A DNA stretch of 64,000 nucleotides from Candidatus Binataceae bacterium (GTDB lineage Bacteria > Desulfobacterota > Binatia > Binatales > Binataceae): assembly GCA_035524375.1 (NCBI GenBank), contig DATKOZ010000035.1:135663-199662 (forward strand), in the 5' to 3' direction. The notes beneath the pieces were generated by a model. It made no database searches and was not told the origin of the DNA. It saw only the letters and a list, made by a program, of their open reading frames with translations. Below are positions 14,538-62,300 of the stretch, in pieces; the first letter of the stretch is position 1; each line of letters begins with the position of its first letter. Made by a program: the position numbers and the translations under genes.

Positions 14538-14586
14538 CAGGCTTCAATTTAGCAAAATCGATCGAAATAAACCCGCCCGGCACTAG

Positions 14587-14740
14587 CAGGGTGTTGAGAT
14601 ACTCGTGGATATTGATAGCAATGCAACTCAGTTCTCAACACCCTGCGTGAAAGATGGCCTCTTTCCGCCATCTTCTCCCCCGCTCTTTCGCGGGGGAGAT
14701 AAGAGAGAGGGAGCAGGCTGTGATTTATCAACAGCCTGCT
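14587..14740 (-). other. Cluster of four consecutive stem-loops in the bioD–xseA intergenic region (possible terminator/attenuator or structured RNA)
   Basis: Inverted repeats at 14587–14645 (13-bp stems cagggtgttgaga/tctcaacaccctg), 14651–14674 (aagatggc/gccatctt), 14675–14698 (ctcccccgc/gcgggggag) and 14712–14740 (agcaggctg/cagcctgct, overlapping the bioD stop). Two loops share GAAAGAG. Confidence 0.4.
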
Positions 14741-15404
14741 AGAGCAGCTGTTCGACGATTTGCTTGGAGAGCGGCTCGCGATGGCGCATCCGGCCCAGGT
14801 ATCGCACGGAGGTCAGGCGGCGGAGCGAATCCTCATTGGTCTGCGATGCGATCGATTCCGCCGGCTCGACATCGCACAGGATGTAGCCCGCAACGTTCAG
14901 GCCGCGTGCCGCCGCATATTTTAATGTCAGCACGGCGGCATTGAGGCATCCTAATCGATTGCCGATAACGACGATGAGTTCCAAATTCAACCGGAGCGCC
15001 AAATCCGCGTAGTCGGTGTCCCAAGTGATCGGTACGGTAAGGCCGCCCGCGCCCTCAACCAGAACGGTATCGCTCTCCGACGCGATTTTATCGAAGCATC
15101 GCTTGATTTCGCCAAGATCGGGCGGCGCGATGCGGTCGATTTCAGCGGCTGCTGCGGGCGCGAGCGGAGATCGATAGCGATACGGACAGATCAGGTCGAT
15201 TGGCATCGCACATGACGCCGCGGCGGCGAGCGCTCTCGCGTCGGCCGGTTCGAGGGTTCCCTCGGCTTCTTTGCAATCGGTTTCCGCAGGTTTCATGACA
15301 CCGACGCGCATTCCGCGTGCGCGCAGCGCATAGGCAAGCGCGCATCCCACCGTGGTCTTTCCCACGGCGGTATCCGTGCCAGTGATTAGAAAACGCCGTC
15401 CCAT
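14739..15404 (-). CDS. bioD: Dethiobiotin synthase
   Basis: P-loop FLITGTDTAVGKTTV. Confidence 0.9.
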   Translation of the reverse strand: MGRRFLITGTDTAVGKTTVGCALAYALRARGMRVGVMKPAETDCKEAEGTLEPADARALAAAASCAMPIDLICPYRYRSPLAPAAAAEIDRIAPPDLGEIKRCFDKIASESDTVLVEGAGGLTVPITWDTDYADLALRLNLELIVVIGNRLGCLNAAVLTLKYAAARGLNVAGYILCDVEPAESIASQTNEDSLRRLTSVRYLGRMRHREPLSKQIVEQLL

Positions 15405-15419
15405 TGGGATTGTCTTAGC

Positions 15420-16787
15420 CTAGCTGGTGCGCTCGGTTACTTCGACAATCGCCGCACGCGTCACGTCGAGGAGTGTGTCGAGTTCGCTTTCAGTGATCGA
15501 TAGCGGCGGCATTAGGACGATCACATTGCCGAGCGGGCGAATGACGACACCTGCGTTGCGTGCGGCCATGATGACAGCCACGCCGATTTGGCGCTCGGTT
15601 TTGTACGGGACTTTTCGCGCAGGATCGTCCATCAACTCGATGCCGGCCATCATTCCGCACTGACGGATATCGGCGACATTCGCCAGCTTGGCGAATCGAT
15701 CGCGCAACCCGTCTGCAAGTTGTGCGATGCGCGGCTGGATTCGGTCGAGCACGGCTTCGTCGCGGAAGATTTTTAAATTCGCGCGCGCGACGGCCGCGGC
15801 GAGCGGATTTCCCGTATAGGTGTGCCCGTAATAGAAGGCGCGAAAATCCGCCGGCTCGCCCAGAAACGCCGAAAATATTTTTTCGCATGCGAGGGTCGCC
15901 GCAAGCGGCAAATATCCGCCGGTGATTCCCTTGCCCATGCATAATAGGTCCGGCTCAATCCCGGCATGTTCGGATGCGAACATCTTTCCGGTGCGGCCGA
16001 ATCCGGTTGCAACCTCATCGCAGACGATGAGCGCGCCCGCCTCGCGGGCCACCGCGGTGATGCCGCGCAGGAATTCCGCGGAGTGCGTCCAGATTCCCGC
16101 CGCGCCTTGAACCATCGGCTCGATCGCGAGCGCCGCAAGCTCGCGGCCATGCTCCTGGATGAATTGGCGCGCGGCAGACAGTGCTTCCTGGGTTGCCGCT
16201 TCGGGCGCCATTCCGCGCTGGAATCGAAATATGTGCGGCGGATCGGTCTTGATCGTTGAAAACAGCAGCGGACGGACGTGGCGATGGAACATCTCGCTGT
16301 AGCCGAGGCTGACCGAGCCGATCGTGTCGCCGTGGTAGGACTCAGTGAGTGTCAAAAAGCGCGTGCGATGGGGTTGGCCTGTAACTTGCCAATATTGGGC
16401 TGCCATCCGGGCCGCGACCTCGACCGCCTCCGCGCCCGAATCCGAATAGAACACACGCGAAAGCTCTGGCGGTGCGATTTCGACAAGCTCGCGCGCCAGC
16501 ATCGTTGCCGGAACGTTGGCCAGGCCCAGCATCGTCGAATGTGCAATCTGCTTCGACTGTTCGATGAGCGCGTCGTCGAGTTCGCGCTTGCGATGGCCGT
16601 GCACGTTGCACCACAGTGACGACACGCCGTCGAGGTACCGCCGCCCCTGCGTATCGATCAGGTAGTTGCCCTCGCCGCGTTCGATGATGAGCGGATCGGC
16701 GGCCATCCAGGTGCGCATCTGCGTGAACGGATGCCATACGAAACGATGGTCGAGTTCTTTGAGTTCGCGGTAGCGGGAATCGCTCAT
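15420..16787 (-). CDS. bioA: Adenosylmethionine-8-amino-7-oxononanoate aminotransferase
   Basis: Class III PLP aminotransferase, 455 aa, BioA-like throughout. Confidence 0.9.
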
Positions 16788-17155
16788 CCAGCCCGCCTCA
16801 CGCGTTGCGGCTTGCCTTGGATCGAATGTTTGCGTTCAGCACGCTGCCGGCTCTGGACGAAGGCGCGAAGCACGGCGTCGATCTGCGTCTGGTAGCGTCT
16901 GCCGTGCGCCTTAAGCCAATCAAGGATGTCGCCATCGAGGCGAATGTGAATGTCGCGCTTGGGATGTGGCAGGCCGATCACTATCGAATCGTCCCAGTCT
17001 TCCGGCAAGGCACCCTCGTCCCGATCCGCAAGCCGATCGACTTCCGCCTGGGGCATCGCGTTAACGCGCTTCCAGTCGGTCTTGCTGCCGCCGCGCGCGA
17101 TTCGGCGTCGGATCTCTTCAGCCGAAAAGCACGCGATATTTTCCTTGTTCCGCAT
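16784..17155 (-). CDS. BrnA-like antitoxin (DUF4415/COG3514), orphan (no adjacent BrnT)
   Basis: …IRLDGDILDWLKAHGRRYQTQIDAVLRAFVQ matches the BrnA signature. Start placed at MRNKEN (17155) to avoid overlapping higA. Its stop overlaps the bioA start by 4 nt (ATGA). Confidence 0.55.
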   Translation of the reverse strand: MRNKENIACFSAEEIRRRIARGGSKTDWKRVNAMPQAEVDRLADRDEGALPEDWDDSIVIGLPHPKRDIHIRLDGDILDWLKAHGRRYQTQIDAVLRAFVQSRQRAERKHSIQGKPQRVRRAG

Positions 17156-17160
17156 ATATT

Positions 17161-17451
17161 TCACGCGGCCCTCGGGCTGAATCGCTCGACGACGATCTCC
17201 GCCGCGCGCCGCCGGACTTGGGCGAGATCGTAATTTACCTGCATCCGCAGCCATAGATCCGCCGTCCCGCCGAAAGCCTTTTCGAGCCGGAGCGCCATTT
17301 CCGGCGTTACGGCGCTCTTGCCGTTGATGACGTTGTAAAGCTGCTGGCGCGTCACGCCAAGCCCTGCGGCAGCGGTGGCCACCGACAGGCCAAGATCATC
17401 GAGATTTTCCCGGATCAGTTCGCCGGGATGGGGCGGGTTCTTCATCGGCAT
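17161..17451 (-). CDS. higA: HigA antitoxin (XRE-family HTH)
   Basis: PGELIRENLDDLGLSVATAAAGLGVTRQQLYNVINGKSAVTPEMALRL (HTH_XRE, HigA-like). Confidence 0.75.
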   Translation of the reverse strand: MPMKNPPHPGELIRENLDDLGLSVATAAAGLGVTRQQLYNVINGKSAVTPEMALRLEKAFGGTADLWLRMQVNYDLAQVRRRAAEIVVERFSPRAA

Positions 17452-17470
17452 CGTCCGACACTCCTATCCT

Positions 17471-17749
17471 TCAGTGATAATCGATGAGATCGACATCGCA
17501 AACGTTCTCTCCGTCGAAACGAAAAATAATCCGCCAGTTCGCTCGCACCGTGATCGCCCAGAAACCCCGGAGACCGCCCTTGAGAGGATGAAGATGAAAT
17601 GCATGAACCTCCAAATCTTTCGGATTCCGAGCCGCGTCGAGCGCGGCAAGGATAACGCAAATTCGGCTTAGGTCCTCGGCGGGAACTTTCGATGAATCGT
17701 CTTTCTCATAGAGGCGTCTTAGGCCGCGATGCCGAAAGCGCGTTACCAC
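17471..17749 (-). CDS. higB: HigB toxin (RelE/ParE superfamily, plasmid-maintenance killer)
   Basis: 92 aa; FRHRGLRRLYEKDDSSKV…HPLKGGLRGFWAITVRANWRIIFRF is the HigB signature. Confidence 0.75.
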   Translation of the reverse strand: MVTRFRHRGLRRLYEKDDSSKVPAEDLSRICVILAALDAARNPKDLEVHAFHLHPLKGGLRGFWAITVRANWRIIFRFDGENVCDVDLIDYH

Positions 17750-17812
17750 TTAGTTATCTGTAAAACGTCAATTAACATTTGTCAACAGGCGCGAGGCTCG
17801 GAAACCCCGTGG

Positions 17813-18994
17813 CTAACTTATTAAGCCAAGTCCCCGGCCAGCCGCCGTGAACGCCATGACCGCTTCGTCCAGGTCGGCGCGCGTATGCGCGGCGGTCGGA
17901 GTCACGCGCAAGCGCGCGGTGCCTTCCGGAACTGTCGGCGGGCGGATTGCGATCACGTAAATTCCGCGCTCCAGCAGCCCGGCAGACATGTTGATCGCCG
18001 CATAAGACGCGCCAATCATCACCGGAATTATCGGGGTCTGCGTCGGCGCGATCGTGAAGCCGGCCGCGATAAGTTCCCCGCGGAGGTATTCGGCGTTGTC
18101 CCACAGCCGCTCGATCAGAGTCGGATCGGACTCGATGAGATTGAGCGCGGCGGATGCCGCGGCGGCCATCGCCGGGGGGAGCCCCGTCGAAAAGATGAAG
18201 CTGCGCGCACGATTAATCAGGAAATCGACAAGCGGGCTCGACCCGGCGATGTACGCGCCATACGCGCCGAGCGCCTTGCTTAGAGTGCCGGCGTGGATGT
18301 CGATTTCCTTTTCCAGTCCAAGCTTGGCCGCCAATCCTGCTCCTCCCGGCCCGACCACGCCGATGGCGTGCGCCTCATCGATCATCACGGCGGCGCGATG
18401 ACGCCGCGCAAGGTCCACGATTTCCGCAAGCGGTGCGCAATCGCCGTCCATGCTGAAGACCGAATCGGTGACAATTAGGCGCCGGCGTGCGTCGTGCGAT
18501 TCGCGGAGCAGCGCGGCCAGATGATCGACGTCGCGATGGCGATAGATCTGAATGGCCGCCTTGCTGAGGCGGCATCCGTCGATCAGGCTGGCGTGGTTCA
18601 GTTCATCGCTGAAGATCACATCGCCCGGGCCGGCCACGGCGGTAATCGCGCCGATGTTGGCCAAATAGCCGGAGCCGAATACCAATGCCGCCTCAACGCG
18701 CTTGAGCCGCGCGATGCGCGCTTCCAATTCATGCAGCGGGGCGAGGCTGCCGGCGATCAGGCGCGATGCGCCAGCGCCAACGCCGTAGCGGTCGATCGCA
18801 TCGGCCGCCGCGCGCTTTAATGCGGGATGCGCCGCCAAGCCCAGGTAATTGTTGGACGACAGCATGATGAATTGGCGCCCGTCCGCCTCGATTCGTGGCG
18901 CGTGAGCGCTGCCGATCTCGCGCAAATGGCGGCGCAAGGAATCGCGCCCAAGGGCGTCGAGCGCGGCGCGAAATTCGTCGTCCAAGATGCCCAT
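17813..18994 (-). CDS. bioF: 8-amino-7-oxononanoate synthase
   Basis: PLP-dependent acyltransferase with the BioF-type lysine motif (…FSTGLPPA…) and overall KBL/BioF similarity. Confidence 0.9.
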   Translation of the reverse strand: MGILDDEFRAALDALGRDSLRRHLREIGSAHAPRIEADGRQFIMLSSNNYLGLAAHPALKRAAADAIDRYGVGAGASRLIAGSLAPLHELEARIARLKRVEAALVFGSGYLANIGAITAVAGPGDVIFSDELNHASLIDGCRLSKAAIQIYRHRDVDHLAALLRESHDARRRLIVTDSVFSMDGDCAPLAEIVDLARRHRAAVMIDEAHAIGVVGPGGAGLAAKLGLEKEIDIHAGTLSKALGAYGAYIAGSSPLVDFLINRARSFIFSTGLPPAMAAAASAALNLIESDPTLIERLWDNAEYLRGELIAAGFTIAPTQTPIIPVMIGASYAAINMSAGLLERGIYVIAIRPPTVPEGTARLRVTPTAAHTRADLDEAVMAFTAAGRGLGLIS

Positions 18995-19123
18995 TATCGA
19001 TCGAGCTTAGCTCGCCAGCGCGCCGCTTGCACACCACTGGCGCTTGAAAGTACCGTTCCAAACGCAGCAGAATTGTAATGTATCGGCGGTGCAGCCAATT
19101 GGATTGCCTGCGCCGGCTGGGAA

Positions 19124-20170
19124 ATGGACAAAGATTCCGCGAATCAACCGCTCTCCAATCGGCGCCACGCGCTGCTGCTGGCCGCAGTGCAGGAGTTTAT
19201 CGCCACTGCCGGACCGGTGGGATCCGCGCAAATCGTTTCGCGTCATCAGCTCGGCGTGCGCGCCGCGATGGTTCGCAACCTGATGGCGGAACTCGAAGAG
19301 CGGGGCTATCTCCGTCAGCCGCATACCTCCGCCGGACGGGTGCCGACGGAGCGTGCGTTTCGCTACTACGTCGATCATCTGGGGACCGGGGCGCGAATCG
19401 GATTCGAGGACCGTGCCAAAATCGAATTACACTGCTCGGCCGGACCGCGCGGGTTGATCGATGTGTTGCGCGATACGCCGCGGCTGCTTGCGCTGATGAC
19501 GGGGCAGGCCGCACTGGTCATGGCGCCGCGGCTGGAAACGGCGATTCTCGAAAGCGTCAACCTGGTACGGCTGCGCGAGCGCCAGGTGCTCGCGATATTC
19601 ACGGCCAGTGGCGGTGGCGAACAGCATCGCATTGTTGAGACCGAACGCGACCACTCGCAGGACGAACTCGATCGGATGGCGCGCTACCTTAACGAGTCGC
19701 TCAAGGGCCGCACGCTGGAAGAAGCGCGAAAATGGATTGCGCTCCAGCTTGAGGAGGAGCGGGCGCGCTACGATCGCTTCATGCTTGAGGCGCTGGCCTT
19801 GGGCGGCGCGATCGCCGATCGCACGGGCAGCCCGGAATTGTATGTCGAAGGCGGACTTGGCGCGCTGGAGCAGCCGGAATTCTCCGACCGCGAGAAGATT
19901 CGCGGACTGCTGCGCGCGCTGGACGACAAGGCCGCGCTGTTGGAATTGCTCGAACGCGCAATCGAGAGCGGCGGGCTTACGGTTTCAATCGGCTCGGAAA
20001 ATAGCGATCCGCGCCTGTCGTCGCTGAGCGTAATCGCGGCAAAGTATGCCAGCGGCTCGATGCCGCCGGGGAGCCTTGCGGTGGTTGGTCCGGTCAGGAT
20101 GGACTACGACCGCCTGATTCCGCTGGTCGATTATACCGCACGGGCATTGTCGCGCCTGATGGAACCTTGA
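19124..20170 (+). CDS. hrcA: Heat-inducible transcription repressor HrcA
   Basis: HrcA winged-helix N-terminus LLAAVQEFIATAGPVGSAQI…VRNLMAELEERGYLRQPHTSAGRVPT. Confidence 0.85.
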   Translation: MDKDSANQPLSNRRHALLLAAVQEFIATAGPVGSAQIVSRHQLGVRAAMVRNLMAELEERGYLRQPHTSAGRVPTERAFRYYVDHLGTGARIGFEDRAKIELHCSAGPRGLIDVLRDTPRLLALMTGQAALVMAPRLETAILESVNLVRLRERQVLAIFTASGGGEQHRIVETERDHSQDELDRMARYLNESLKGRTLEEARKWIALQLEEERARYDRFMLEALALGGAIADRTGSPELYVEGGLGALEQPEFSDREKIRGLLRALDDKAALLELLERAIESGGLTVSIGSENSDPRLSSLSVIAAKYASGSMPPGSLAVVGPVRMDYDRLIPLVDYTARALSRLMEP

Positions 20171-61467: not shown

Positions 61468-61539
61468 GCCGATGTAGCTCAACGGTAGAGCACCTGATTT
61501 GTAATCAGTAGGTTGCGAGTTCGATTCTCGCCATCGGCT
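61468..61539 (+). tRNA. tRNA-Thr (anticodon TGT)
   Basis: Cloverleaf gccgatg/catcggc acceptor, anticodon loop tttgtaa, T-loop ttcgatt. Confidence 0.8.
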
Positions 61540-61563
61540 TTTGGTCGGCATGATGACCTTAGC

Positions 61564-61649
<86 letters not shown>

Positions 61650-61678
61650 TTGAGCGGAGCGTTTGTTTTGGAGAGAGA

Positions 61679-61754
61679 GCGGGAATAGCTCAGTTGGTAG
61701 AGCGCGAGCCTTCCAAGCTCGGGGTCGCGGGTTCGAGTCCCGTTTCCCGCTCCA
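61679..61754 (+). tRNA. tRNA-Gly (anticodon TCC), CCA encoded
   Basis: Acceptor gcgggaa/ttcccgc, anticodon loop cttccaa, T-loop ttcgagt. Confidence 0.8.
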
Positions 61755-61842
61755 GTTTTACCCGGTCCATCGGATGGACCGGAGATGACGGAACCGCCGC
61801 GAGGATGTTCCTTCGAGGATGTAAAGGGCCGGAACGATGGAT

Positions 61843-61915
<73 letters not shown>

Positions 61916-61965
61916 TTCAAAAATTTTGCGCCGGCGAATCGGCGCGGTGATATTCGAGGTCGAGT

Positions 61966-62121
61966 ATGAGAGATTTAATCGGACTTGCGTGCGACGGATG
62001 CAAACGGCGCAATTACATAACCAGCAAGAACAAAAAGAAGCAGACCGACAAGTTTGCCATTAAGAAGTTTTGCCCCAACTGCCGCACCCATACGGTGCAT
62101 CGCGAGAGCAAGATTTCTTGA
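61966..62121 (+). CDS. rpmG: 50S ribosomal protein L33
   Basis: 51-aa ORF MRDLIGLACDGCKRRNYITSKNKKKQTDKFAIKKFCPNCRTHTVHRESKIS with a C4 zinc ribbon (CDGC…CPNC). Below the 60-aa cutoff of the supplied ORF track. Confidence 0.85.
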   Translation: MRDLIGLACDGCKRRNYITSKNKKKQTDKFAIKKFCPNCRTHTVHRESKIS

Positions 62122-62223
62122 GAGGCACGGGCTTACGCGGAAAATGGGTCGCGTCCGGCCGGACTTCGGTTGGCACGCGCGAATCGTTTCGAAACGGCGC
62201 CCCTTTTGAGGAGATGATGATCA

Positions 62224-62300
62224 GGGTCAGTAGCTCTAATTGGCAGAGCATCGGACTCCAAATCCGAGGGTTGCAGGTTCGAATCCTGCCTGGCCCGCCA
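62224..62300 (+). tRNA. tRNA-Trp (anticodon CCA), CCA encoded
   Basis: Acceptor gggtcag/ctggccc (one G·U), anticodon loop ctccaaa, T-loop ttcgaat. Confidence 0.75.

Follow-up and report, generated by a model that had tools for sequence, protein, structure and literature searches.

Toxin–antitoxin genes between bioF and bioA

The window analysed here, a stretch of 64,000 nucleotides (nt) from a metagenome-assembled contig of a Candidatus Binataceae bacterium (DATKOZ010000035.1), contains the biotin biosynthesis genes bioF, bioA and bioD. Between bioF and bioA is an islet of toxin–antitoxin (TA) genes, made up of the pair higBA and a brnA antitoxin gene that, judged from the sequence, is an orphan BrnA and not part of a BrnTA system. 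An earlier reading of this DNA, made from the sequence only, had described six co-directional genes at the locus, and all six are indeed on the minus strand, in the order bioF-higB-higA-brnA-bioA-bioD.

17813-18994, minus strand: bioF, 8-amino-7-oxononanoate synthase, first gene of the operon (TIGR00858 equivalog, 476 bits, cut-off 426; PF00155)
17471-17749, minus strand: higB toxin gene, 92 amino acids (aa), GTG start (PF05015, E = 2.6e-18, profile positions 2-91 of 91)
17161-17451, minus strand: higA antitoxin gene, 96 aa, HTH-XRE (TIGR02607 HigA equivalog, 101 bits, cut-off 47.7; PF01381)
16784-17155, minus strand: orphan brnA, 123 aa, DUF4415/BrnA antitoxin family (PF14384, E = 3.7e-12)
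16784-16787, minus strand: ATGA, in which the brnA stop (TGA) and the bioA start (ATG) overlap, sequence context GTGAGGCGGGCTGGATGAGCG
15420-16787, minus strand: bioA, adenosylmethionine-8-amino-7-oxononanoate transaminase (TIGR00508 equivalog, 501 bits, cut-off 405)
14739-15404, minus strand: bioD, dethiobiotin synthase, last gene of the unit (TIGR00347 equivalog, 143 bits, cut-off 83; PF13500)

The three biotin genes are all above their equivalog cut-offs, syntenic and co-oriented, with the same bioF-bioA-bioD order found in Binatia loci; xseA comes after bioD. Spacing along the islet is close, with 19 nt between higB and higA (17452-17470), 5 nt between higA and brnA, and -4 nt between brnA and bioA; the bioA-bioD spacer is 15 nt. 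The 19 nt separation and the ATGA overlap had both been reported in the sequence-only reading, as had the BrnA-like signature IRLDGDILDWLKAHGRRYQTQIDAVLRAFV, which is present in the BrnA-family open reading frame (ORF) at 16784-17155. A GAGG motif is located inside brnA, 8 nt upstream of the bioA ATG. The start of brnA can be placed in three ways. The mechanical ORF begins at 17254, inside higA, and the public gene call uses a GTG at 17164 that overlaps the higA stop as GTGA. Comparison of the sequences indicates that the start is the ATG at 17155, 5 nt past the higA stop, which is conserved in the orthologue from the closest genome (locus L001).

The public gene call, on identical contigs from ENA and Logan, skips higB and leaves the gap between bioF and higA empty, likely owing to the GTG start of this gene, which has no Shine-Dalgarno sequence. 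Automated annotation would therefore present higA and brnA as two lone antitoxins.

Metagenome assembly can join unrelated sequences, and the source contig as well as a local dip in GC content at higB would be compatible with a misassembly that brought TA genes and biotin genes together. However, two assemblies made independently from different data sets, namely ENA ERZ27256510 (a 233 kb contig) and Logan SRR8879131 (a different run), contain the identical gene string, and the arrangement is therefore not a misassembly. The gene overlaps at the junctions are also precise and in frame, and L001 carries a related islet at the same site. The chance that the locus is a chimera is thus negligible.

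The relatives of its BioA place the window in Candidatus Binataceae (Binatia), with the top genome match being 82% identical. The proteins of the window were searched by tblastn against 82 genome loci. In 17 Binataceae/Binatia genome loci (L002-L010, L014-L021) bioF abuts bioA, mostly with gaps of approximately 10-50 nt, and the two genes are also adjacent in approximately 19 metagenome loci (among L091-L126). Inserts between bioF and bioA were found only in the window and in L001, against approximately 35 related Binatia loci without one. This comparison, which the sequence-only reading had proposed, bears out the claim that TA genes interrupt a normally contiguous bioFAD here, and the insertion is far from universal among the relatives. 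The bioF-bioA gaps of other phyla contain bioH/bioC-like or membrane ORFs and no TA genes.

One Binataceae subgroup (L011, L012, L013, L103, L105 and L107) has no bioF before bioA-bioD; a small carboxymuconolactone-decarboxylase-like ORF or other genes stand upstream instead. The bioFAD order is therefore not universal in the family.

The islet in L001 differs in content from that of the window. After bioF, L001 has mazE, mazF, a remnant of brnT, brnA, a GFA-domain gene, hicB and hicA, followed by bioA. All seven of these L001 genes are co-oriented and closely packed. Its mazE encodes 80 aa with no Pfam match, and its mazF product is a PemK protein (E = 1e-23). Directly after the bioF stop of L001, and ending at the mazE ATG, there is a near-perfect 23 nt palindrome, ATATACGTGTA-G-TACACGTATAT (L001 3569-3602). 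This is probably the mazEF operator, so that the mazEF cassette would also have brought its own control region.

Another close relative, the metagenome contig L091 (80% BioA identity), has the order hrcA-bioF-bioA-bioD with a 33 nt bioF-bioA spacer and no insert. A tree of bioF and bioA (791 columns) groups the three as (window,(L001,L091)) in 300 of 300 bootstraps. Amino-acid identity over bioF and bioA is 87.7% between L001 and L091, 82.7% between the window and L001 and 80.3% between the window and L091. In separate comparisons with L001, the bioF of the window is 81% and its bioA 82% identical. Gain, replacement and complete loss of the insert would all have taken place among genomes that are 80-88% identical in the flanking enzymes.

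The higBA cassette and the orphan brnA

DNA comparison with another higBA locus, L171, delimits the higBA cassette of the window and leaves a short stretch after bioF outside it.

17161-17785, minus strand: higBA cassette, 625 bp, comprising promoter/operator, higB and higA (DNA homology to L171)
17757-17785, minus strand: candidate higBA promoter (-35 TTGACA at 17785-17780, 17 nt spacer, -10-like TACAGA at 17762-17757)
17786-17812, minus strand: 27 nt following the bioF stop, not covered by the homology of the higBA cassette

A near-identical HigB cluster, P0121, is indexed on a 149 kb JGI contig. The closest HigB relatives with usable context are P0136, at 75-77% identity, the HigB of L171 being 75% identical. 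L171 is a two-gene higBA with unrelated neighbour genes on the opposite strand. Its higBA DNA is approximately 80% identical to that of the window, and the homology extends from TTGACA (17785) exactly to the higA stop (17161), 5 nt before brnA. Both ends of the cassette, at the -35 box and at the stop codon, are thus known with single-base precision. The 27 nt stretch beyond it loosely resembles the 33 nt empty-site spacer of L091, sharing the pattern GCCTCG.G..(..)CTGTT.AC, and probably survives from the ancestral spacer between bioF and bioA.

The motif TTGACA-N17-TACAGA is conserved between the window and L171, and it is because of this conservation, rather than from a scan, that a promoter is proposed here. 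The TACAGA box is 7 nt from the GTG start of higB, and the higBA transcript may, speculatively, be leaderless. An inverted repeat lies over the candidate promoter; the L171 copy (TGACAA-N7-TTGTCA) is perfect, whereas that of the window (TGACAA-N7-TTGACG) is imperfect. HigA, or the HigBA complex, would repress its own promoter at this overlapping repeat. The higBA pair therefore seems to bring its own putative promoter, and the islet may not simply be one unit driven from bioF.

HigB aligns end to end with the Proteus vulgaris HigB 4mct_B (E = 1e-21, residues 1-92), with LHPLKG and the C-terminal DYH identical between the two. The His of LHPLKG and the C-terminal Asp-Tyr-His are residues that we take to form the active site, as in P. 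vulgaris HigB. HigA matches the P. vulgaris HigA 4mcx_A (E = 1e-16). On these alignments the higBA module looks intact. By family knowledge, HigB would cleave mRNA as a ribosome-dependent endonuclease, with HigA keeping it in check.

The cassette is like the HigBA of plasmid Rts1/P. vulgaris (4mct, 4mcx) in its toxin-first order, its HTH-XRE HigA and its candidate promoter overlapped by an inverted repeat. It differs in being chromosomal and within a biosynthetic operon, in having no terminator before the downstream brnA, bioA and bioD, and in the GTG start so close to the -10-like box.

The GC content at third codon positions (GC3) of higB is 0.55, against 0.69-0.77 in the neighbouring genes, which is consistent with a fairly recent arrival. 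A search for a mobile-element signature in 16700-17900 found only direct and inverted repeats that are chance-level matches of 10-19 nt. There is no integrase or transposase among the called neighbours, and no attC-like site or insertion sequence (IS) remnants were detected, with no dedicated attC model applied. The 64 kb window has no paralogues of the TA proteins outside the islet.

The BrnA of the window matches the Pfam model with its C-terminal part only (PF14384, 46.9 bits, cut-off 26.1, profile positions 29-68), and more than 150 BrnA homologues carry PF14384. A tblastn search of the whole 64 kb window with two intact BrnT queries identified no BrnT homologue (best E > 1), so the statement in the sequence-only reading that the BrnA-like gene lacks a BrnT partner stands. 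No BrnT-like sequence precedes brnA in the window; a faint alignment is limited to approximately 11 codons that overlap brnA itself. Close homologues of this BrnA (66-68% identity, many of them from Binataceae) are found directly behind an 89 aa brnT (PF04365), which in L089 and L090 overlaps the start of brnA by 38 nt. The intact brnTA of L089 has a context like that of a defence island (L089 2644-7881), where AbiEi precedes the pair, and an HTH gene, a patatin and a SMODS/AGS-C (CBASS-like) gene follow it.

What became of the toxin gene can be seen in L001, which keeps a 23-codon 3' remnant of brnT, corresponding to BrnT residues 67-89, at 83-87% identity (tblastn). This remnant is directly after mazF and exactly upstream of, and overlapping, brnA. 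The BrnA proteins of the window and L001 share 76% aa identity, are reciprocal best hits, and are sisters in 200 of 200 bootstraps among 70 homologues. DNA homology between the window and L001 spans brnA from its ATG to its stop, and on the other side ends at the bioF stop. The origin of the orphan antitoxin is in this way documented by a toxin remnant in a related genome.

The loss of BrnT with retention of BrnA is not limited to these two genomes. In another Binataceae lineage (L083-L087), an intact brnA follows a brnT with an in-frame stop (…DGRSV*TCPSP…; L083 3769-4041). This lineage is widely sampled, and its BrnA cluster, P0030, is listed on 29 contigs, of which 24 were read. By its sequence L083 has lost an intact BrnT and kept BrnA independently of the window and L001, and the orphaning of this antitoxin thus recurs.

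The ratio of nonsynonymous to synonymous substitutions (dN/dS, Nei-Gojobori) for brnA between the window and L001 is 0.21, with dS 0.73. The flanking genes in the same comparison have dN/dS of 0.12 (bioF), 0.13 (bioA), 0.18 (bioD) and 0.18 (hrcA), with dS between 0.94 and 1.11. The value for brnA indicates that the orphan is under purifying selection and is not decaying.

BrnA has been described as an antitoxin of the ribbon-helix-helix (RHH) type that regulates its own expression (Heaton et al. 2012, in the summary of PMC11980606). An AlphaFold2 monomer model of the window protein, based on an alignment of 38 sequences, is too poor for use, with a mean predicted local distance difference test score (pLDDT) of 48.5 and a predicted template modelling score (pTM) of 0.25. 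In it, the C-terminal helices 75-84 and 89-111 after IHIRLD are compatible with RHH, although unreliable. A PDB sequence search with BrnA found no match at E <= 1. The RHH antitoxin and autoregulator role of this BrnA, like the activities of HigB and HigA, is carried over from what is known of the families. Compared with the BrnTA system of Brucella abortus, the window shares the BrnA domain (PF14384/DUF4415), and close homologues are toxin-first with an overlapping brnT. However, the window BrnA is a long form of 123 aa and the toxin gene is gone, overwritten by higBA in the window and cut to 23 codons by mazEF in L001.

With higA and brnA only 5 nt apart, or overlapping as GTGA if the alternative start is used, and with no obvious Shine-Dalgarno sequence before brnA, it could be thought that HigB, HigA and the BrnA-like protein act together as a three-component system, with BrnA as a second antitoxin or regulator. 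A precedent for a third component is the mycobacterial HigBA-TAC (toxin–antitoxin–chaperone), where it is a SecB-like chaperone. This is very improbable for the window and is largely refuted by three comparisons: the nearest higBA relative, L171, is bipartite with DNA homology ending at the higA stop; close BrnA homologues pair with BrnT; and the orthologous brnA of L001 follows mazEF and the brnT remnant, not higBA. An 'orphan antitoxin' beside another TA pair should therefore not be taken as evidence of a three-gene system.

A further possibility is that brnA is a functionless leftover, encoding an inert protein, which has escaped decay only owing to a very recent loss of its toxin or to the overlap of its 3' end with the bioA start. 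Orphan antitoxins are frequent elsewhere: strains of the Klebsiella pneumoniae complex have a median of nine, and degrading TA pairs and anti-addiction have been proposed as their sources (PMC7192599). As common by-products of TA decay they lend this view some support, as do the un-ameliorated GC3 of higB, suggesting recent arrival, and the absence of BrnT from the 64 kb window. However, the ORF is full length and intact in both the window and L001 despite independent disruptions of brnT with different breakpoints, the dN/dS of 0.21 covers the whole gene and not only its 3' end, the invariant residues of the family are kept, and a third lineage (L083) also retains brnA behind a brnT pseudogene. 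An inert leftover is therefore doubtful. The window resembles the Klebsiella cases in that an antitoxin gene is kept without its toxin in cis. It differs in that the orphaning can be reconstructed, as replacement by another TA cassette, and in that the stop of the orphan is fused to the start of an essential-pathway gene.

Proposed turnover in the bioF-bioA spacer

The history that would best account for these arrangements begins with the ancestor of the window organism and L001, which is proposed to have gained brnTA in the bioF-bioA spacer, co-oriented with the operon. In the lineage of the window, the 625 bp higBA cassette, of the Rts1/Proteus type, would then have replaced everything from the old spacer to 5 nt before the brnA ATG, removing brnT and orphaning brnA. 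In L001, mazEF would have truncated brnT at codon 67, independently of the loss of brnT in the window. The presence of brnA in the window and L001 and its absence from L091 suggest that the islet was lost cleanly in L091 or was moved by recombination of the locus. The bioF-bioA spacer would thus be a permissive site where type II TA cassettes have repeatedly landed, replaced each other and been lost.

The count of events is at least four or five: the gain of brnTA, its replacement by higBA, the insertion of mazEF, the gain of the GFA-domain gene and hicBA, and the loss in L091. All are in a single spacer of approximately 30-50 nt, in a clade with at least 80% identity in the flanking enzymes. 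Each of the five inferred incoming units is co-oriented with the operon. With random orientation this would have a probability of approximately 0.03, which suggests that survival is limited to insertions allowing read-through to bioA and bioD.

We consider it likely, with a probability of about three in four, that the islet is a fast-turnover TA site in one Binataceae sublineage, that brnA is the survivor of an overwritten brnTA, and that the location favours the cassettes. The location most likely benefits them through guaranteed transcription and because they are hard to delete without harming bioA or bioD. It is plausible that brnA has been kept since its 3' end carries the bioA translation-initiation region, or since BrnA neutralises BrnT from elsewhere or from mobile elements, or for both reasons. 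The suggestion that the TA genes reflect a recent insertion held in part. The higBA cassette is specific to the lineage of the window; however, the islet is not the product of one recent event and is layered, with brnA being older, as is seen from its L001 orthologue (dS approximately 0.7).

Several points weigh against this account. The history of gain and loss assumes that the bioF and bioA tree reflects organismal descent, and homologous recombination would give the same pattern. An intact bioF-brnT-brnA-bioA intermediate was not found among the loci compared. The low dN/dS of brnA could largely date from a period when brnT was still there, and the structure model of BrnA is too poor to bear out an RHH fold. 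The proposed higBA promoter has a weak -10 (TACAGA), and a generic sigma-70 scan flagged no promoter on the coding strand, this one included. Read-through, promoter activity, autoregulation by HigA and coupling of brnA to bioA are all deduced from sequence geometry and knowledge of the families.

A stronger version of the turnover reading would see the spacer as an arena of competition between TA systems, in which incoming cassettes (higBA in the window, mazEF in L001) survive specifically when they knock out the resident toxin and spare the antitoxin, with the orphan BrnA actively kept as anti-addiction immunity or as an obligatory translated leader of bioA. This is tentative and rather unlikely. 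If it were true, the locus would offer a natural, datable succession of cassettes, and would show how a biosynthetic gene can recruit an antitoxin ORF for its translation-initiation region.

Predicted expression of the unit and comparison with known systems

Transcription of the unit would begin in the divergent region between hrcA and bioF, and the only terminator-like site on the coding strand is downstream of bioD.

19124-20170, plus strand: hrcA, divergent, upstream of bioF
18995-19123: hrcA-bioF divergent intergenic region, 129 nt between the two ATGs, presumed site of the bio promoter
14572-14590, minus strand: hairpin with T-run, terminator-like, downstream of bioD (pattern match in a consensus scan)

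The sequence-only reading had suggested a single expression unit. This is consistent with the consensus scan, in which no terminator-like site was found between bioF and bioD on the coding strand, and needs to be qualified in view of the putative promoter of higBA. With no terminator and gaps of 19, 5 and -4 nt between the genes, read-through from two promoters, that of bioF and the putative one of higBA, would carry transcription into bioA and bioD. Ribosomes ending brnA would probably reinitiate at the overlapping bioA ATG, aided by the GAGG within brnA.

This arrangement could be read as adaptive wiring, in which domesticated TA genes tie biotin synthesis to stress. Stress-induced degradation of HigA might, for example, derepress the higBA promoter and raise bioA and bioD expression, or BrnA, as an RHH protein, might regulate the bio genes. 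Co-orientation, the lack of terminators and the ATGA overlap do place bioA and bioD behind a putative autoregulated TA promoter, and brnA is under purifying selection with no toxin in cis. However, the cargo is not conserved, being higBA in the window, mazEF, the GFA-domain gene and hicBA in L001, and nothing in L091; approximately 35 related loci function without an insert; and the brnA of L001 is not adjacent to bioA. Nor was an operator-like repeat common to the islet and the bioF upstream region found. With cargo that differs between carriers and an empty site in L091, the pattern is better matched by selfish turnover at a permissive site than by a regulatory design under conservation. The sequence-only reading had proposed that biotin synthesis may be linked to TA-mediated stress control; this is not borne out, adaptive wiring is improbable, and it is unlikely that the islet is a designed regulator of biotin synthesis.

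TA pairs embedded in housekeeping units and co-transcribed with them are known. In Bacillus subtilis, ndoAI-ndoA is located between alr and the rsb-sigB genes. The mazEF pair of Escherichia coli is downstream of relA (bioRxiv 10.1101/048728). Both are like the islet of the window in being co-oriented TA pairs within such a unit. However, their position is conserved across the species, whereas the cargo here turns over between close relatives, and the islet is between two enzymes of one pathway. Integration hotspots or defence islets between core genes, and integron TA cassettes, are similar in having varied cargo at one site flanked by conserved core genes, with cassettes that are compact, promoter-bearing and co-oriented. 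Here, in contrast, the analysis detected neither an integrase nor an attC-like site, and neither flanking direct repeats nor IS remnants, and the site is within an operon rather than between operons.

A literature search found no report of a TA pair within a biotin operon, with papers mentioning the two terms separately. The parts are ordinary members of the HigBA and BrnA/DUF4415 families and only the location is unusual. No new type of system is revealed, and there is no evidence here for TA control of biotin synthesis. What is mildly new is the context: a fast-turnover TA islet inside bioFAD, in which one cassette appears to have overwritten the toxin of another and an antitoxin ORF is fused to the bioA start. 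It provides a reconstructable case of the spread and replacement of type II TA cassettes inside a biosynthetic operon, with no detectable transposon or integron signature.

Within the hrcA-bioF intergenic region, L001 and L091 share with the window the conserved block ATTACAATT..TTTCAAGC, which could be a candidate regulatory site for the bio or hrcA genes. A sigma-54-like motif, TGGAACG-N4-TTTCA (19060-19045, minus strand, 51 nt upstream of the bioF ATG), was rejected since its TGG is not conserved in L001 or L091. The same region in L001 (2225-2350) and L091 (approximately 990-1095) is longer by 110-130 nt that the window lacks. A hairpin of the CCCCTCTCCCTTCAGGAGAGGGGG type in this additional sequence points to a small repeat or an insertion like a miniature inverted-repeat transposable element (MITE).

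Long bioA-bioD spacers of 220-240 nt occur in L003 (9357-9591), L008 (5812-6051), L014 (9271-9492) and L018 (9357-9575), and searching them for hidden small genes gave no convincing ORF. An Rfam scan of the whole window identified nothing in the bio region and only five distant tRNAs. These five tRNA genes are clustered at 61468-62297 on the plus strand, within approximately 830 nt.

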